64,000 nucleotides of DNA from an uncultured delta proteobacterium (GTDB taxonomy: Bacteria; Desulfobacterota; Binatia; UBA9968). The DNA is taken from assembly GCA_963771465.1 (NCBI GenBank), contig CAVYTU010000015.1:736001-800000 (forward strand). Direction: 5' to 3'. The notes beneath the pieces are model-generated. The model made no database searches, was not told where the DNA came from, and was given only the letters and a program-made list of their open reading frames with translations. Shown one piece after another: positions 36,939 through 49,069 of the stretch. Numbering within the stretch: position 1 is the first letter of the stretch; every line of letters begins with the position of its first letter. The position numbers and the translations under genes are program-made.

Positions 36939-37859
36939 CTATTGGTTCATCGGAGACAAGCGGAACGCTCCAATCCCCGGTGTTTTGACCCCGAGTTTGC
37001 AGAGTGAACCTCGCGGGGTGAGATATAGCGTGCGAAAGTCCGGTCCGCCAAAAGCGAGGTTGCGAACTACGTCCGGCATCGAAGCGATGCCGATTACCTC
37101 ACCGGATGGAGCGATAACCCAAATGCCGCCGGAGCCGACGCAAAACACTCGACCCTCGGTATCGACTTTGATGCCGTCGGGGACGCCGGGATCCGCCGAA
37201 GACATATTACAGAACACACGGTTGTTGCTTAGGGTCCCATCCGCGGCCACGTCAAAAGCTCGGATGCGCCGATGTGTACAAACCTCACCACGCTCCGCCT
37301 CCTGGAAGCAGCGCTCGTCCAGCCGGCTAATCGCTACGTACAGAATCGACTCGTCGGGCGAGAACGCCAGCCCATTGGGGTATTCACACTCATCGGTGGC
37401 CAGGTGCACGCGCCCCGCTGGATCGATGCGAAATACACCGGAAAATCCGATCTCCCGCAGTTCTGCTGAAACGCGCAGCCCGGGGTCAGTGAAATAGATG
37501 CTGCCGTCGGAACGGCACACCACGTCATTGGGCTTATTGAATCGCTTACCTTGCCAACGCTCGGCAATGGCCGTGACGGCGCCATGTTCGTCCATGCGGG
37601 TAATGCGCCGGTGATCGGCGCCTTCGCACATGATCAGACGGCCGTAGCGATCCAGAGTGCACCCATTACCCTCTCCGGTATTCTCCCGCACTACCGTTAC
37701 CGAACCGTTCGAGTCCCAACGCAAAAGCCGGTTCCCCTCCAGATCCACAAAGGTAACATACCCTTCCGCATGCCAGAGGGGTCCTTCGGCGCGGCCCCAG
37801 CCAGATGTGAGCAAATTGGGCTCAGTGGATTCGAATATATCCGACAGACTTTCCGGCAT
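36939..37859 (-). CDS. SMP-30/gluconolactonase/LRE family protein
   Basis: EGPLW, PNDVV, PNGLAFSPD, PDGIKVD; own GAGGAGG RBS before ATG 37859; in frame with the upstream ORF in this assembly. Confidence 0.85.
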   Translation of the reverse strand: MPESLSDIFESTEPNLLTSGWGRAEGPLWHAEGYVTFVDLEGNRLLRWDSNGSVTVVRENTGEGNGCTLDRYGRLIMCEGADHRRITRMDEHGAVTAIAERWQGKRFNKPNDVVCRSDGSIYFTDPGLRVSAELREIGFSGVFRIDPAGRVHLATDECEYPNGLAFSPDESILYVAISRLDERCFQEAERGEVCTHRRIRAFDVAADGTLSNNRVFCNMSSADPGVPDGIKVDTEGRVFCVGSGGIWVIAPSGEVIGIASMPDVVRNLAFGGPDFRTLYLTPRGSLCKLGVKTPGIGAFRLSPMNQ

Positions 37860-39389
37860 CCTGCGCCTCCTCAGATTCCGACCTATACTAATTTCTTCTT
37901 GTCGCCGTGGGTGGGAGTGTAGGTATTCCTGGAGCGCGCGCCCCAAGGTCGCCGCGTGAATTCCATTTTCTTGGAAATTGTCGGTAACATGCTGAAACGC
38001 CCATAGCGCCGCATCACGATAGATCTCTTCACCGGTCGCCCCGGCAAGCGCGAGGAAGAATGAAGCGGCAGCACCGTTTTGTTCGATCAAAGTTAAACGA
38101 AGCTTGAGCGAAGCCGAATCCTGCGCACGAATATCGTAGAAACCGCCGGCGGGATTTTTCAGTTCTGCTAAAATGAACGCCGCCATCTGCTGCGCGCGAT
38201 CTAAATACATACCATCGCCGGTTGCGTCGTGAGCACGAACAAGCGCCATGCCCATCTGCGCTTGATCCTGAAGTAGGCCCGGCACATGCGGCGCGCCGTC
38301 GAAGTAGTGAGACATCCCGCCGCTGTCGCTGCGGCAATGCTGCCAGAGAAATTCCAGCGCGATCAGCGCCCGTTCGCGATAAGCCGGCTTTTTTAAAAGC
38401 TCCGCGGCATCGAGATACGCCGCGCTGACGATCGCATTGGCATCGGTGTATAAGCAACGGTCGATTATGGTAAAAAATTCTCCGCCTGCGGCAACCGGAT
38501 TTTCATTGCGGAGAAAATCTTCGCAACCGAAAAATGCGCCGCTCGCTGGATCCAAGAGCTTGGCATCCAAGTACTGAATGATCTCTTCGGCCATGCGGCG
38601 AAACTGCTCCCGGCGCGTGACACGATAGACCGCCAGACAATTCGCCAGCAGGCCGGCCTGTTCCATAAGCAATTTTTCCCGATGCGGATGGCTCCAGTCA
38701 GCATTGGAAGAAGTTCGAAAATAAGCGCCGCCTTCATGATCGTAAATCTCTCCGGCGCGCATGCGGCCGAGAGTGAGACAGACTTGATCGAGATATCGCT
38801 CATCTTTGGTGGCCTCGTAACGCTCCAGCAGAAAATCATTGACCGTCGGATGAATGAATTTCTGGACGCGATCGTAACCGCCGTTAACCCGATCGGCGAG
38901 TTTCATGATCGTCTCGGCAATTTCGTCAAGCGCGGCCAGATTGATCCCAACCGCCGGTTCTGCGCTAACGGCGGTCGACACCGGCGCCGATTCTTGCGCC
39001 GTTGTGGGCTTCTGCTGATAGGCGAGATAAACGCGAAAGAGAATGTCCTGGAACTCGGCCGGCGGCAGATAGTTGACGACGCTCAAAAGTTCGCCCTCCG
39101 GCGTCATGAACGCAATCGTCGGCCAGCCGTGGAAGTTATAGCGGGCGTCGACGTCGGGCCGTTGGGCGTTCTCAACCCGCAGTGAAATGAAGTAGGCATT
39201 GAGCAGCGCGATATTTTCCGTATCGGAAAACGCCTCTTCGTCCATGCGCTGGCAGTAACGGCACCAAAACGCCGCGAGAAAAAGCATCACCGGCTTGTTC
39301 TCGGCGCGCGCGGCGCGAAACGCCTCATCGCTCCATTCCTGCCACGGAATCACATGCGCGCGGTTCGGATTGGGTGAGAAACGAAGCAT
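37860..39389 (-). CDS. Thioredoxin-like DUF255 + (alpha/alpha)6 domain protein (YyaL/SPATA20 family)
   Basis: WQEWSDEAF.AA..ENKP, WCRYC, RPDVD, GWPT, PH.EKLL. Confidence 0.85.
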
Positions 39390-40899: not shown

Positions 40900-42185
40900 A
40901 TGCGAGTCGTTCATTATCTGAACCAGTTTTTCGGCGGCATCGGAGCGGAAGAGCATGCCGGCGTAGGGCTGGAATTTCGTGACGGCGCCGTCGGCCCAGG
41001 AAAGCTCCTTGAGCAACAGTTGGGCGACGGCGCCAGAAGTGTTTTTAACCATCGTTTGCGGCGACAACTACGCCGTCGAACATCAAGAAGAAATTACCGC
41101 CGCGGTGTTAAGAAAACTCGGCGCCACCGGCGCCGATCTTTTCGTCGCCGGGCCTTGCTTCGATGCCGGACGTTACGGCATGGCGGCGGGCGCCTTGTGC
41201 GCCGCCGATTCAGTCGGAGCTAAAAATTCCTGCCGTCACGGCGATGAACGAAGAAAATCCCGGCGTCGATCTATATCGCGAAGCGGTCCATATCATCGAT
41301 TCGGGAACGAGCATCACCAAATTGCGCGAAGTGGTGGCGTCGATGGCAAAGCTTGGAAAAAAACTCGTCGGCAAAGAACCGATCGGCCTACCGCAAGAAG
41401 AAGGCTATTTGCCGCGCGGCCTGTTGCGCGATCAGTTGGGTAGCGAAACCGCCGCGGCGCGTTTGGTCAACATGCTCCTGGCCAAAATGCGCGGCGAAAA
41501 CTTCCGGTCGGAAATGTCCCACACCGCGTTTGCGCCGGTGCCCATGCCCGCCGCCATAAAAGATTTATCCAAAGCCAAAGTCATGCTCATCACCGACGGC
41601 GGTTTGGTTCCCAAAGGCAATCCCGATCGTATCGAAGGCACAGCGGCAACGCGCTGGGGCGCGTACAACATCAAAGACAGCGATAACTTGCGCAGCGAAG
41701 ACTACGAAGTCTCCCACGGCGGTTACGACACGCGCTTTGTCCAGGACGATCCGGACCGCCTTGTGCCGCTCGACGCCCTGCGCGAGATGGAACGGAGCGG
41801 CGTCATCGGCAAGCTGAACGATGAATTTCTCTCCACCTGTGGGCGCTCCAATCCACTTTCGAACACACGCCGGCTCGGCCGCGAGATGGCCGAAAAAATT
41901 ATTAGGGAAGGTATCGACGCGGTGATCCTCACCTCCACGTGAGGCACCAGCACTCGCAGCGGCGCTGCGATCACAACGGAACTCGAAAAAGCCGGCATCC
42001 CCGTCGTACAAATCACTTCCGCTCTACCCATCGCAAAAATGGTCGGCTCCAACCGCGTCGTATTAGGAACCGGCATCGTTCACGTCACCGGCGACGCCAA
42101 GCTAGCGCCCAACGACGAAAAGGAATTGCGCCGCAAACTCGTCCGGCAAGCACTCGACGCGCTGCAGTCGAACGAAAAGCGCTAG
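40900..42185 (+). CDS. grdB: Glycine/betaine/sarcosine reductase family selenoprotein B; Sec at UGA 41940-41942; two frameshifts near 41035 and 41205
   Basis: MRVVHYLNQFFGGIG, AGPCFDAGRYG, AMNEENPG, GGLVPKGNPDRIE, HGGYD, VILTST-UGA-GTSTRSGA; frame continues as a GrdB C-terminus to TAG 42185. Confidence 0.85.
41954..41970 (+). promoter_or_regulatory. Putative bacterial SECIS hairpin
   Basis: TCGCAGC-GGC-GCTGCGA, perfect 7-bp stem starting 11 nt after the UGA, loop begins with G. Confidence 0.65.
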
Positions 42186-42437
42186 TGGTCCCTGCGAAAT
42201 GACCCCGAGATAGTCGCAAATTGCGGCCACCTGAATTCGCGCCGCTGCTCTCAAGCGAGCCAATGGCGGCAACACTCGACAACCAAAGCTCCGCGCGCTC
42301 GCCCGATCTCTTGAGACCGCATCCATCTCGTTATATGACTGTGCGGACTGCACTTCTCTGTGCCGGGTTGTTGCATCCAACGGCGACGCCTTGTGCGAGA
42401 TCAGTTCCACCAACTTACTGACGGAGGAATCACAAGC

Positions 42438-42938
42438 ATGGCTGCTGAGGCCCAGTACGCAGCGCTACCGGTGAGCATTACGGTCAACGGCGTCAAGCAC
42501 GACGCCTTGATCGAACCGCGCACGCTGCTGGTTTATTTTTTGCGCGAGCATTTGAATCTAACCGGCACCCACGTCGGCTGCGACACCAGCCAATGCGGCG
42601 CCTGCACGGTGCACTTGAACGGCCGCGCGGTGAAGTCCTGCACGATTCTTGCGGTGCAAGCAAACGGCGCTGAGATCAAAACCATTGAAGGTTTGGCCGA
42701 CGGCGACAACTTCCATCCGGTGCAGGAAGGATTTCGCGAAAAGCACGGTCTGCAATGCGGCTACTGCACGCCCGGCATGATCATGACCGCGGTGCATTTG
42801 CTCGAAACCAATCCCAATCCCACGGACGATGAGATCAAGCACGCACTCGAAGGCAATCTCTGCCGCTGCACCGGTTACGTCAACATCGTCGAGTCGATCA
42901 AATGGGCGGCGGCCAAAATGCAGGAGGCCGGAAAATAA
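42438..42938 (+). CDS. Xanthine dehydrogenase/CO dehydrogenase family small [2Fe-2S] subunit (CoxS-like)
   Basis: [27 protein letters not shown]; GGAGG RBS. Confidence 0.92.
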
Positions 42939-43013
42939 TGACGCAAACACTCAAGCTCACAACTTCACGCCTTATACCTCACACCCCATGCCTACTTCAG
43001 AGGGGAGGCGAGA

Positions 43014-43883
43014 ATGTTTCCCGCTAACTTCGGCTACGTGGCGGCGCGCACCGTCGAGGAAGCGTTATTACTTCTGACCAAACATGGTGAAGAGGGAAAG
43101 CTGCTCGCCGGCGGTCACAGTCTAATCCCGGCGATGAAGCTCCGGCTGCAATCGCCGCAGATGTTGATCGATCTCGGCACCGTGCCGGGACTGCGGGGCG
43201 TGCGCGCCGACGGAAATCAGCTAGTCATCGGCGCGCTCACCGTTCACGCCGATGTCGCATCATCCGATCTCGTGCGTAAACATGTGCCAGGGCTGGCCGA
43301 AGCGGCGTCGTTGATCGGCGACGTGCAAGTGCGCAACCGCGGCACCATCGGCGGCAGCGTGGCCCACGCCGACCCGGCGGCAGATCTGCCGGTTATCTTA
43401 ACCGCGCTCGACGCAGCCTTCGTCGTCCAATCATCGTCCGGCAACCGCACCATCGCCGTCGACGAATTTTTCACCGACTTTTACACCACCGCGATCAGCG
43501 CCAATGAAATTCTCACCGAGATCCGAGTACCGCTTCCTGGCGCCCGCTGCGGCACGGCGTATGCAAAATTGCCGCACCCGGCTTCCGGCTATGTGGTCGT
43601 CAGCGCCGGCGTATTGGTCACACGCCAAGCTTCCGGCTCTTGCACCGCCGCTCGTGTGGCGATTGGCGGCTTAGGCAGCGGTCCATGCCGTGCCATCGCC
43701 ACGGAAATCGAGTTACAAGGAAAGCCGCTGACACCACAAATCATCGCCGCGGCCGCAGCGAAAGCCGCCGAAGAAACCGACCCTGTGGAAGATTCCTACG
43801 CTAGCGCGGAATACAAACTTCACGTCGCTACGGTCTATGCGCGCATGGCGATCGAAGCGGCGCTGGAAAGAGCAAGAAACTAA
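43014..43883 (+). CDS. Xanthine dehydrogenase family FAD-binding medium subunit (CoxM-like)
   Basis: AGGHSLIP.MKLR, QVRNRGTIGGS.AHADPAAD. Confidence 0.92.
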   Translation: MFPANFGYVAARTVEEALLLLTKHGEEGKLLAGGHSLIPAMKLRLQSPQMLIDLGTVPGLRGVRADGNQLVIGALTVHADVASSDLVRKHVPGLAEAASLIGDVQVRNRGTIGGSVAHADPAADLPVILTALDAAFVVQSSSGNRTIAVDEFFTDFYTTAISANEILTEIRVPLPGARCGTAYAKLPHPASGYVVVSAGVLVTRQASGSCTAARVAIGGLGSGPCRAIATEIELQGKPLTPQIIAAAAAKAAEETDPVEDSYASAEYKLHVATVYARMAIEAALERARN

Positions 43884-43892
43884 GGCAATGAC

Positions 43893-43968
43893 CGTGTTCG
43901 TGATCGTGGCTCGTGTTCATAAGAAACAAATCTCTCGACAATCTTAACGAGCACGAACCACGATCACG
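43893..43968. repeat. Intergenic palindrome of CGTG/CACG 6-mer units
   Basis: cgtgttcgtgatcgtggctcgtg...gagcacgaaccacgatcacg. Confidence 0.55.
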
Positions 43969-43986
43969 TTTCTTGAGAGGAAAACC

Positions 43987-46302
43987 ATGTCAACCGAACA
44001 CGAAGTTATCGGACTCATCGGCGCATCGCCCAAACGGGTCGAAGATCCGCCGTTGATCACCGGCAAAGGCTGCTACACCGACGATATCCATTTGCCTGGG
44101 ATGCTTTACCTAGCATTGCAGCGTAGTCCGTACCCGCACGCGAAAATCATTTCCATCGACACGAGCAAAGCCAAAACCATGCCGGGCGTAGAACTGGTCG
44201 TCACCGGCAGCGATCTCAGTGAAAAATTAAATCTCGCGCCGTCGCAGGTGTTGCCGAACATGAAGATCCCGGCTCATCCCGTGCTGGCGCGCGGCGCGGT
44301 TCACTGTGTCGGCGTGCCGGTTGCAGCGGTCGTCGCCAAGACGCGCGCCCAGGCCGAAGACGCCGCACACGCTATCGAAGTGGAATACGAAGCGCTGCCC
44401 GGCGTGTCCAACGCCGAAGACGCGCTCAAGCCCGGCGCGCCGCTGGCGCACCACGATCTCGACAGCAACATCTGTTACACCATGACCAAGAACGGCGGCG
44501 ACGTCGATAAAGCCTTCGCCGCGGCAGATCATGTTTTCACCATGCATATCGCCAGCCCGCGCCAAGTGGCGTTGGCGATGGAACCGAGAGGCGTCGTCGC
44601 GAGCCCCGATCCCTTCGGCAAAAATTTGACCGTGTGGCTGTCGACCCAAGGGCCGCACCGCGCCCGCGCCGAAATCGCCGGCGTGCTCGGCTTTCCCGAG
44701 CATCGAATTCATCTCATCGCGCCCGATGTCGGCGGCGGCTTTGGCAGTAAAGGTCCGGTCTATCGCGAAGACATCATCGCCTGCCATCTCGCGCTCAAGT
44801 TGCGCAAGCCGGTCAAATGGATCGCCACCCGTAGCGATGATTTCATCACCACGATTCAGGGCCGCGACCAGGCGATGACATCCGAAATGGCGTTAAGAAA
44901 AGACGGTAAAATTTTGGGCCTCAAAGTCAAAGTCGTCGCCAACCTCGGCGCTTATCTTCACTCCAGCACCGCCGGTCCGCCGCAGCGCATGATGGGCATG
45001 GCTTGCGGCAGCTATCAGATTAAAGACTGCCGTGTCGAGATCGTCTCGGTGTTCACCAACACCTGCCCCACCGGCCCCTATCGCGGCGCCGGACGACCCG
45101 AGTCGGTATTGAACATCGAGCGGCTGCTCGACAAAGCCGCCGCGGTGCTCGGCATGGACCGCTTGGAAATACGCCGGAAGAATTTCATTCAACCCGATCA
45201 GTTCCCCTACACCACCGGCACCGGCGTCGAATACGATTCCGGCGATTATGAAAAGCCGCTCCGCGAAGCGCTCAAGATTTCCAACTACGACGAACTCCTG
45301 CGCCAGCGCGATGAGCGGCGAAAAAACGGCGAACTGGTCGGCGTCGGCTTCTCGACATTCGTCGAACCGAGCGGCGGCGCGGGCTTTGAAAGCGGCACCG
45401 TGCGCGTCGAACGCACCGGCGAGATCACCGTGCTCACCGGCTCGAGCTCGCACGGTCAAGGACATGAAACTTCGTGGGCGCAAATCGCCGCTGAACTCAT
45501 GAAGACAACCATGGATCATGTGACCGTTCTCCACGGCGACACCCATGTGAGCCAGCAAGGCACCGGCACATTTGGCAGCCGCAGCGCGGTGGTCGGCGGC
45601 GGCGCTCTCGCCACCGCGGCTGAGCGGGTGATCGACAAAGGCCGACGCATCGCCGCGCATTTGGTTGAAGCCGCGCCGGAAGACATCGTCCAAGCCGACG
45701 GCGGTTTTGCCGTCAAAGGCGTGCCCGACAAAACCGTCACTTGGCGCCAGATCGCGGCGGCCGCCTATGGCGGCAGAGTCCCAATGGGAATGGAAATCGG
45801 CCTGCAAGAAACCAGCTTCTTCGATCCCAAGCGCGAAGCCTGGGGCTTCGGCACCCATATCGCGCTGGTCAGTATCGAGCGCGACACCGGCAAGTTCAGC
45901 ATCGAAAAGCTCGTGATGGTCGACGACTGCGGCGTGGTGATCAATCCGATGATCGTCGAGGGACAAATTCACGGCGGCGTTGCTCAAGGTCTCGGTGAGG
46001 CGCTGCGCGAGCAGATGCTCTACAGCGACGACGGCCAGGTCGAAACCGGCACATTCATGAACTATGCGATCATGCGCGCCGGCGACATGCCGCCGATGAT
46101 ACTCGGCGAAACCATTACGCCCAATCCCTTCAATCCCTTGGGCGTCAAAGGCGTCGGTGAATGCGGCACCAACGGCGCCCCGCCAGCGGTGGCCAATGCG
46201 CTGATGGACGCGCTTGCGCCCCTCGGCATCGACCACGTCGACATGCCCTACACCGCGCCCAAGTTATGGGAGTTGATTCGTAAGGCGGAAGGAAAGAATT
46301 AG
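43987..46302 (+). CDS. Xanthine dehydrogenase family molybdopterin-binding large subunit (form II CoxL-like)
   Basis: GGGFGSK, PYRGAGRPE, HGQGHET, GTFGSRS, EGQIHGG, GVKGVGE. Confidence 0.92.
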   Translation: MSTEHEVIGLIGASPKRVEDPPLITGKGCYTDDIHLPGMLYLALQRSPYPHAKIISIDTSKAKTMPGVELVVTGSDLSEKLNLAPSQVLPNMKIPAHPVLARGAVHCVGVPVAAVVAKTRAQAEDAAHAIEVEYEALPGVSNAEDALKPGAPLAHHDLDSNICYTMTKNGGDVDKAFAAADHVFTMHIASPRQVALAMEPRGVVASPDPFGKNLTVWLSTQGPHRARAEIAGVLGFPEHRIHLIAPDVGGGFGSKGPVYREDIIACHLALKLRKPVKWIATRSDDFITTIQGRDQAMTSEMALRKDGKILGLKVKVVANLGAYLHSSTAGPPQRMMGMACGSYQIKDCRVEIVSVFTNTCPTGPYRGAGRPESVLNIERLLDKAAAVLGMDRLEIRRKNFIQPDQFPYTTGTGVEYDSGDYEKPLREALKISNYDELLRQRDERRKNGELVGVGFSTFVEPSGGAGFESGTVRVERTGEITVLTGSSSHGQGHETSWAQIAAELMKTTMDHVTVLHGDTHVSQQGTGTFGSRSAVVGGGALATAAERVIDKGRRIAAHLVEAAPEDIVQADGGFAVKGVPDKTVTWRQIAAAAYGGRVPMGMEIGLQETSFFDPKREAWGFGTHIALVSIERDTGKFSIEKLVMVDDCGVVINPMIVEGQIHGGVAQGLGEALREQMLYSDDGQVETGTFMNYAIMRAGDMPPMILGETITPNPFNPLGVKGVGECGTNGAPPAVANALMDALAPLGIDHVDMPYTAPKLWELIRKAEGKN

Positions 46303-47594: not shown

Positions 47595-48035
47595 GTGAAC
47601 TGGCAAGCTAATCTTCTTTCGACCACTGAGCAAATTCGCGACCTGATCAATCACAGCAAACGTATCGCTGTCCTCGGCATCAAGACCGACGCGCAGTCCG
47701 ACCAGCCGTCGGTTTATGTGCCGCAGTACATGCAGCGCGCAGGCTACGAAATCATCCCGGTGCCGGTTTACTATCCGGATGCGACGATGATTCTTGGCGA
47801 GAAAGTTTTTCGCAGGCTTGCTGATATTCCAGGCGACATCGACATGGTCGACGTCTTCCGCCGACCGCCGGACATTAACGCTCACGTCGAAGATATTTTG
47901 GCGAAGCAGCCCACATCAGTTTGGTTTCAGTCAGGCATCCGCAATGATAGCGCGGCCGAGATATTCGCCAAGGCGGGAATCAAAGTCGTGCAAGACCGTT
48001 GACTGATGGTCGACCACCGGCGGTTCGCCGGTTAG
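47595..48035 (+). CDS. CoA-binding protein (YccU family) with an in-frame UGA at the conserved C-terminal Cys position
   Basis: IAVLG, GYEIIPV, DMVDVFRRP, VWFQSGI, VVQDR-TGA-LMVDHRRFAG-TAG. Confidence 0.8.
48016..48032 (+). promoter_or_regulatory. Putative SECIS hairpin
   Basis: ACCGGCG-GTT-CGCCGGT 7-bp stem 13 nt after UGA 48000-48002; loop starts GU. Confidence 0.5.
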
Positions 48036-48059
48036 ATGCCATTTAAAATTCCGTGTTCG

Positions 48060-48923
48060 CTACGCCGCCAATTTCTGCGCGTGGAGTTGTTTGGCGATGA
48101 ACGTTTTGATCTGTTCGTAAGCGCGCTCGGTCTGCGGTCCCGGCTTAGCGACCCACCGGTGCTCACTGCCCTTGAATACCTCGAACTCGCAGTCACCGCC
48201 TGCTTCTCGATAGGTAGCGACAAAACGCTCTTGCACGGCGGGCAACACGTTGTCATCTAACTCACCTTGGAGAATATACATCGGCGGCATTGAGACCTTC
48301 TCACCGCGCTCGAGGATTTTCTGTGGGTTGCCTTCGTGAATGCTCTCCCACGGGTTGAAGTAAGTCTTGCTGTTCTGAATCATTTCCGCCCACTGCTTGC
48401 GCTCCGCCTGCTGGTAGCGCGCGAACGGGTCGCTCACTGGCGAGCGCGCCACGACATAGGGCAACGTTGCATCGATTTTGGGCGCTTCCGCCAAAACATG
48501 CGCGTTATAGCGGGGATCATGCGGCCGCAGCGCAACGAGTTCGATCTCGTGGCCGCCGCTCGAGCTTCCCAGTGCCGCGACGGTGGCCGGATCACCGTTC
48601 CATTCCCGCGCCTTCGCTTTGAGCCAACGAACGCCGTAGTTTGCATCTTGCACCGAAGCCGGATAAGGCGCTTCAGGCGCGCGTGTCAAGTCGATGGCGA
48701 CGACGAGCAGGCCGCTGCGCGCCAAACTTTCGTCCATCGGCTGATTGGCGGTTCGGTCTTGATTATTCCAAGCGCCGCCGTGGAGGTCGAGCAATGTCGG
48801 GAACGGCCCGCCACCCTGCGGCTGATAAATCCGCGCCATCAACTGCCGAGTGGGGGTTTTGCGAAACTCGATATCCCAAGTTTTGATCTCGAATTTGTTT
48901 GCAGGATTATAAGTTGTCGCCAT
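48060..48923 (-). CDS. Alpha/beta hydrolase (HSL-like esterase)
   Basis: HGGAW, GSSSGG, GELDD, SEH; start ATG 48923 after GGAGG. Confidence 0.87.
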   Translation of the reverse strand: MATTYNPANKFEIKTWDIEFRKTPTRQLMARIYQPQGGGPFPTLLDLHGGAWNNQDRTANQPMDESLARSGLLVVAIDLTRAPEAPYPASVQDANYGVRWLKAKAREWNGDPATVAALGSSSGGHEIELVALRPHDPRYNAHVLAEAPKIDATLPYVVARSPVSDPFARYQQAERKQWAEMIQNSKTYFNPWESIHEGNPQKILERGEKVSMPPMYILQGELDDNVLPAVQERFVATYREAGGDCEFEVFKGSEHRWVAKPGPQTERAYEQIKTFIAKQLHAQKLAA

Positions 48924-49069
48924 GTTTGCTCCCTCCTTAGTTCTGCTAGCCAGAAGAGCGGGCTTCAAACCTGCCCTTTGTTACATTGCCAAAATATTCT
49001 TTGCGCTCTTTGCGATTAAATTCCGCTTCCGGCTTCTCTTGCTTCGTGCCTTGTGGTTAATTCTCTAAC

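Follow-up and report, generated by a model that had tools for sequence, protein, structure and literature searches.

A probable selenocysteine-containing form of the CoA-binding protein family PF13380 in a soil lineage of Binatia

The PF13380 (CoA_binding_2) family comprises small proteins of bacteria and archaea with no known function, and we know of no biochemical function established for its structurally solved members. One of them, PH1109 of Pyrococcus horikoshii, is reportedly covered by a structural paper together with CoA, and the Escherichia coli relatives are presumably those labelled YccU. A literature search on the role of the conserved cysteine in PH1109, TT1466 or YccU returned nothing usable. 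Proteins use selenocysteine (Sec) almost exclusively at catalytic redox positions, and therefore Sec in place of the PF13380 cysteine would be strong natural evidence as to which residue of this family is active. The prototype of the bacterial SelB-dependent SECIS element is that of E. coli fdhF. In spores of Bacillus subtilis, the putative CoA-binding protein YneT carries CoA disulfide-linked to Cys126, within TVIMDLC126IK (PMC8127865). For selenoproteins, a 2026 review counts 119 prokaryotic families and subfamilies (PMC13188914).

The gene described here lies in the window, by which we mean the whole 64,000-nucleotide stretch of DNA that was analysed. The open reading frame from 47595 to 48002 closes with ...AKAGIKVVQDR followed by TGA, and the same frame continues as LMVDHRRFAG up to the TAG at 48033-48035. 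The original prediction had described this split frame, a perfect 7-bp hairpin with a GUU loop 13 nt downstream of the TGA, and a UGA standing opposite the conserved Cys of the family; all of these were found as described. From the sequence evidence set out below, the gene is very probably a genuine selenoprotein gene in which UGA is read as Sec. In the proposed mechanism, the UGA would be decoded as Sec by SelB and tRNA-Sec under the direction of the hairpin, and Sec would take the place of the conserved Cys in the DRC motif of the family. The coordinates of all features are collected in Table 1.

Table 1. Positions of the candidate selenoprotein gene, its parts and other features discussed in the text (window coordinates unless a contig is named).
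Feature	Position	Strand	Basis or detail
CoA-binding candidate selenoprotein gene (complete)	47595..48035	+	Translation with TGA=U; PF13380 match
UGA codon, predicted U136, at the Cys place of the DRC motif	48000..48002	+	Aligned to Cys in 1IUK, 2D59 and 2DUW
Ten codons past the UGA (LMVDHRRFAG), predicted last alpha-helix	48003..48032	+	Synonymous variation, identity drop, model
SECIS-like hairpin	48016..48032	+	ACCGGCG 48016-48022, GTT 48023-48025, CGCCGGT 48026-48032
TAG, predicted true stop	48033..48035	+	Sequence; in relatives, conservation stops at this codon or 1-4 codons beyond
Three-gene Mo-hydroxylase set (2Fe-2S, FAD and MoCo subunits; CO-dehydrogenase/xanthine-dehydrogenase type)	42360-46302	+	
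GRDB-family gene (glycine/sarcosine/betaine reductase B-like)	about 40900-42240	+	Three successive frames
selA-selB-selD locus, outside the window	G000 contig C14:197541-201637		

Translated with TGA as U, the gene begins at a GTG (47595), carries Sec as residue 136, ends at the TAG and gives a product of 146 residues. This read-through product matches the PF13380 profile with 114.5 bits against a cut-off of 22.8 (E 4.9e-33), and the match places residues 22-141 on profile positions 1-115 of 116 and spans the UGA. Its best matches of solved structure are TT1466 of Thermus thermophilus (1IUK, E 3.4e-27) and PH1109 (2D59), in which U136 is aligned on the Cys of DRC and of NRC, respectively; in the printed alignments DR-U-LMVDHRRF pairs with DR-C-LMVEHKRL and with NR-C-MMREHERL. 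An AlphaFold model of the 146-residue protein, computed from a 32-sequence alignment with U entered as C, in which the Cys column at U136 is invariant, reached a pLDDT of 96.3. The model superimposes on 1IUK, 2D59 and 2D5A with TM scores of 0.84-0.86 (0.86 to 1IUK and 2D59) and an rmsd of 1.5-1.7 Å, and its remoter structure matches come from ADP-forming acyl-CoA synthetases and succinyl-CoA synthetase, in each case from the CoA-binding domain. By profile and model, the product is a single-domain putative CoA-binding protein of PF13380 and has the predicted Rossmann-like CoA-binding fold seen in TT1466 and PH1109. In the model, residue 136 is flanked by the last strand (130-132) on one side and by the N-terminus of the last helix (137-145) on the other, and thus the ten codons past the UGA encode a structural helix of the fold.

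The TGA recurs in related genomes. High-identity orthologs were found in 19 congeners among the 61 related genomes searched, with one TGA inside the match in 18 of the 19 and none in the remaining genome, G028. The position of the codon was confirmed in 17 loci, including that of the source genome (G000), plus G026; in G019 a frameshift breaks the gene in two. The genome behind one row, L026, is flagged as unpublished (G005), and the counts hold without it. Two other genera of the source family have Cys and not TGA, and in a second family of the same order 4 of 13 orthologs have TGA at the same column (G053, G051, G059 and G050) and nine have Cys. The expectation of the original prediction that TGA with a continuing downstream frame would be seen in independent genomes was thus borne out. 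Contigs taken as one genome per species gave 9 TGA and 71 Cys among 80 loci, and the motif was present in 78 of 80 metagenome loci fetched (TGA in 49, Cys in 29). Pooled and de-duplicated, the fetched loci comprise 69 distinct TGA sequences, of which 65 are of the genus type and 4 belong to a second clade, and 105 distinct Cys sequences; the Cys forms spell the codon TGC or TGT, and TGA is present in 65/65 of the distinct genus-type sequences. Public records of the close relatives are named as Candidatus Binatia, Candidatus Binatus or Deltaproteobacteria MAGs. A phylum-wide sample contained a match at E <= 1e-30 in 9 of 401 genomes, with TGA in G000 only. Among the best 150 representatives at 50% identity, 70 have Cys at the motif and 3, each belonging to the genus type, end in ...VVQDR. 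Fragments make up most of the remaining 77, together with a few in which the motif around the Cys is a variant one; an additional Sec lineage was not found among these 150.

A TGA inside a conserved frame might also be an error of sequencing or assembly, or a recent nonsense mutation that has left a pseudogene. The assembly, a MAG, is contaminated to 6.29%, and the GRDB-family gene 6 kb upstream has two frameshifts, both of which fit this explanation. However, the same TGA is present in all 69 distinct sequences mentioned above, which come from many assemblies and metagenomes, and purifying selection goes on past it. It is also kept in contigs of two other public runs that span the codon, so that the reading of the site on which the original prediction depended is upheld. 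A contig of a DNA run from another study covers 47834-48031 with zero differences, and an RNA library from a third study yielded a 430-nt contig over 47922-48300. Of the 15 differences in the latter, one is a synonymous T>C at 47999 and none lies at 48000-48002. These are assembled contigs and not raw reads, and origin from an RNA library is no proof of transcription. Two runs reach the codon; X17 covers 47657-47874 only, and X5 has no listed piece across 48000-48002. We consider the chance that the TGA is an error or the mark of a pseudogene to be close to negligible.

Alternatively, the TGA could be a genuine stop that ends a 135-residue protein without the last helix, with the hairpin serving RNA stability or termination where two genes converge. 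The next gene, on the minus strand at 48060-48968, is indeed convergent, and public gene calls all end at the TGA: at least 106 of the best 120 protein clusters (90% identity, one large collection) stop at ...QDR, the other 14 being full-length Cys forms, and the names given to these clusters in the source are “CoA-binding protein”. Taken with the read-through product, this count means that public annotation truncates the protein to 135 aa. On the other hand, a stop at this codon would deprive the product of a confidently modelled helix that is conserved from Thermus to Pyrococcus, and the amino acids typical of the family are preserved in the ten codons past the TGA.

The pattern of codon usage around the TGA bears directly on this alternative. 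In the 65 distinct genus-type Sec sequences, each of the four codons ahead of the UGA is represented by 2-4 synonymous codons. Past the UGA, Leu+1 is encoded by CTG, CTT, CTA and CTC, Asp+4 by GAC and GAT (plus one Glu), and Gly+10 by all four GGN codons (plus one Arg). These three positions lie outside the 6-bp conserved core of the stem and their changes are almost purely synonymous, which indicates that the stretch past the UGA is translated. In the stem, the codons of the Sec forms are frozen, with His CAC in 65/65, the two Arg as CGG in 65/65 and 64/65, and Ala GCC in 64/65. The 50 distinct Cys forms that have the same His-Arg-Arg use CAT (26) and CAC (24) for His and six codons at each Arg. 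The 19 distinct GTDB-derived sequences have a third-position identity of 0.675 over the 150 nt that precede the UGA and of 0.889 over the ten codons that follow it, and their overall nucleotide identity drops from 0.96 to 0.49 past codon +10; conservation ends at the second stop codon and not at the TGA. The changes that do occur in Sec forms are mainly in loop positions 2-3, where TTC becomes TCC, TCA, TCG or TAC (Phe to Ser or Tyr). One stem change, GCC to GTC, keeps the pairing as G-U, a few single changes break a pair, and no compensatory double change in the stem was seen within the genus. Synonymous change outside the stem together with frozen codons inside it is the pattern expected of a coding SECIS element, and, as judged from these alignments, the codon, the downstream frame and the hairpin are demonstrably under selection.

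Outside the stem, the third codon past the UGA (Val GTC, 48009-48011) is GTC in 65/65 Sec forms, and all four Val codons occur in the Cys forms. The invariant GTC may reflect an extra context requirement for recoding.

The hairpin has 7 perfect pairs and a GUU apical loop, and its onset is 13 nt past the UGA. Its conserved core consists of 6 bp (CCGGCG at 48017-48022 with CGCCGG at 48026-48031) and is invariant in 64-65 of the 65 sequences, the outer A-U pair being confined to this genome and part of the genus; the first base of the loop is G in 64/65 genus-type Sec sequences. GC-rich hairpins follow about 1-3% of TGAs by chance, which is compatible with a genuine stop: by loose SECIS criteria, a perfect hairpin of at least 7 bp stands after 18 of the window's 1940 TGA trinucleotides (0.9%), and one of at least 6 bp after 64 (3.3%). 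The 81-nt fold has a z-score of -0.15 relative to shuffles. The hairpin is thus only mildly unusual by itself, and its weight as evidence comes from its conservation. An Rfam scan of 47800-48200 with E up to 10 gave two chance matches only and no SECIS family; the numerical criteria of bSECISearch served for comparison with the hairpin. A mini-hairpin upstream, with the UGA in its loop, was considered and dropped as a conserved element, as codon -1 is CGC in 52/65 sequences and breaks the pairing.

The terminator, which the original prediction had named as one of several findings that would count against it, fares poorly here, because the hairpin is not followed by a T-run, no terminator is called at it on either strand, and the stem is frozen at synonymous positions in TGA forms only. 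Moreover, G028, the congener in which Sec machinery was not detected, has TGC rather than a stop at this codon. A genuine stop is therefore very unlikely, and we return to the reading of the UGA as Sec.

A hairpin of their own, GGUCGCC-GGC-GGCGACC, is present in the four second-clade Sec genes; its onset is 16 nt past the UGA and its loop begins with G. Their frame continues past the UGA as LMV[E/D]HRSPAAT[F/V/I]P and then stops. The sequence of this hairpin is quite different from that of the genus type, while its shape and place are similar, and the hairpins of the two clades may be independent inventions rather than a case of covariation. In a quick maximum-likelihood tree of 112 distinct rows (7 duplicates dropped, the U/C column masked), the two Sec groups are in separate clades, with an SH-aLRT support of 99 for the second. 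Within the genus, the Sec forms are intermingled with Cys forms, for example P0002 (94% identity), and the strongly supported branches of this tree force at least three changes between Sec and Cys.

The source genome contains the complete machinery for Sec insertion, as the original prediction had supposed. A tRNA-Sec (76.7 bits) is located on contig C13, and selA, selB and selD are adjacent on contig C14, all above curated cut-offs; ARAGORN found no tRNA in the window. The selD gene has an in-frame TGA of its own (...KAAGU AAKLGP...), and the hairpin downstream of this TGA has 8 bp and a GUU loop. SelA is present in 56 of the 61 related genomes. TGA serves as the stop of 6 of the 14 Pfam-supported neighbouring ORFs, so the genetic code is not reassigned.

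G028 (locus L017) alone among the congeners has TGC at this codon, and the loop of its hairpin is CUU instead of GUU. In this genome (92% complete, 90 contigs) no selA, selB, selD or tRNA-Sec was found above the cut-offs, and in G004, which served as a control, all four were found. Because selA, selB and selD form one locus, effectively two loci and not four are missing from the incomplete G028. The combination is an apparent case of loss of the Sec trait paired with replacement of Sec by Cys, as far as the sequences of G028 indicate, and such a pairing is what one would predict from loss of the trait. G009 carries TGA, and only a fragment of selD, at a contig end, was found in it.

These data also bear on the explanation that the UGA is read through with a residue other than Sec, for instance through a near-cognate tRNA (tRNA-Trp or tRNA-Cys) or a different kind of recoding, with the hairpin acting as a stimulator of read-through only. 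The 3-nt loop, which is smaller than the loop of E. coli fdhF, is in favor of such a reading. It sits badly, however, with a genome that has the complete Sec machinery and whose selD hairpin has the identical GUU loop, with a site that is a conserved Cys and thus makes a classic Sec/Cys pair, and with the substitution of TGC for TGA in the one congener where the machinery was not found. We therefore regard non-Sec read-through as highly improbable and selenocysteine as very probably the residue encoded by this UGA.

The surroundings of the gene were surveyed in 198 flanking ORFs, 100 of which were scanned against Pfam. A convergent alpha/beta-hydrolase gene (BD-FAE/Abhydrolase_3) is located downstream in 13 of the 20 loci of the source family (L011-L030), and a MoCo large-subunit gene lies directly upstream in seven congeners and in one other genus of this family; the upstream observation concerns the Mo-hydroxylase set of the window and loci L020-L027 and L030. 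The adjacency of the Mo-hydroxylase and the alpha/beta-hydrolase may reflect synteny or a functional link. Among the 100 ORFs scanned with Pfam, no operon partner was found, and no neighbour is common to the second clade or to other phyla.

The original prediction had also taken a grdB gene 6 kb away as a sign that the organism decodes Sec. A GRDB-family gene is indeed there, and as an argument for Sec decoding it is weak, because this copy has two frameshifts. They are implied +1 shifts near 41035 and 41205. The gene has an in-frame TGA at 41940-41942 with an open frame past it (...LTSTU GTSTRSGAAITTELEKAGIPVV...), and 11 nt farther on a 7-bp hairpin with a GGC loop, UCGCAGC-GGC-GCUGCGA, was recognized by eye. 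At least four other, intact paralogs are present in the source genome, and broken copies were also seen in G004 and G028; the broken gene could be a pseudogene or the product of assembly indels. Also in the window, on the minus strand at 36939-39389, is a gene for an 816-residue protein with an N-terminal thioredoxin-like DsbH/DUF255 domain and a C-terminal SMP-30/gluconolactonase-like propeller.

A redox or nucleophilic role for residue 136, which the original prediction had implied, can reasonably be inferred. The residue at this position is the sole Cys or Sec in 107 of the 112 distinct sequences, and the 146-residue source protein has no Cys other than the Sec position. There is consequently no intramolecular resolving thiol, and the partner sulfur must come from outside the protein. 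Together with the CoA mixed disulfide of YneT and the place of the residue at the strand-to-helix junction of the model, this suggests that the Sec or Cys is most likely a redox-active nucleophile. In the chemistry we propose, Sec136 would form a reversible Se-S bond (S-S in the Cys forms) with the thiol of CoA in the Rossmann-like pocket. By analogy with YneT, the protein could then be a CoA-specific thiol-exchange or carrier protein and not a passive binder, a possibility to which we give somewhat less than an even chance. Its possible roles would include stripping or transferring CoA from CoAlated proteins, or the handling of CoA disulfide or persulfide. Extended to the family, the proposal would make the PF13380 proteins, among them YccU, YneT and TT1466, a CoA-specific thiol-redox family that cycles via a CoA adduct and in which an upgrade to Sec has happened at least twice independently; we put this forward tentatively. 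The soil lineage of the window would be one in which the catalytic residue was upgraded to Sec.

Recoding of UGA as such is a known phenomenon, and the value of this case is that it points to the active residue of PF13380, a family whose function is not known and in which one residue is now marked as chemically active. The Sec form and the CoA adduct of YneT together lead to a directly testable hypothesis, namely that this residue makes the reversible bond to CoA described above. The truncation of these proteins at the UGA in databases matters for the annotation of Binatia-like soil genomes.

The original prediction had placed the protein outside the classical selenoprotein families, and this fits the 2026 catalogue, in whose Table 1 there is no entry for PF13380, CoA-binding, YccU or YneT (PMC13188914); the three mentions of “CoA” in that table belong to unrelated families, and the supplements of the primary surveys could have an entry. 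The deep-Sep paper contains no mention of “CoA”, NCBIfam assigns the protein to no family and has no matching selenoprotein model, and literature searches for CoA binding with selenocysteine and UGA, and for Binatia with selenocysteine, found nothing in the collection searched. The Sec form of PF13380 is very probably a real selenoprotein family, apparently absent from the catalogues that were checked, and it would add a family to them.

A catalogued selenoprotein that is likewise tied to CoA thiol redox chemistry is the FAD-dependent oxidoreductase of CoA-disulfide reductase type in Table 1 (TIGR03385, motif UGxP; PMC13188914). It differs from the protein described here in its unrelated flavoprotein fold and its motif, and has no sequence relationship to PF13380. 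Like the source protein, YneT is small (135 aa) and putatively CoA-binding, and its Cys126 matches U136 (KVVQDRULM) only in motif (V-[VI]-x-D-x-C/U-[IL]) and in how far it lies from the C-terminus. In contrast to the source protein, it has Cys in place of Sec, and its CoAlation was observed in spores, a context that is not relevant to the source organism (PMC8127865).

The closest described proteins are TT1466 (1IUK/1IUL), PH1109 (2D59/2D5A) and the Klebsiella protein 2DUW, which the source protein resembles in family, fold, size and C-terminal helix, and with which it shares the motif DR-C/U-LMV-E/D-H. All of these solved members have Cys, whereas the source gene has a UGA and a SECIS-like hairpin. 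In comparison with known bacterial SECIS elements, the hairpin is similar in that it lies in, or at the end of, the ORF shortly past the UGA and has a G opening its apical loop; it differs in its short stem of 6-7 bp, its 3-nt loop, the absence of a bulged U, and a 3' arm that ends 1 nt before the stop codon. The loop opens 20 nt past the UGA in the source gene; the corresponding distances are 23 nt for the second clade and 33 nt for the selD gene of the same genome, whose hairpin presents the same GUU loop as that of the CoA-binding gene.
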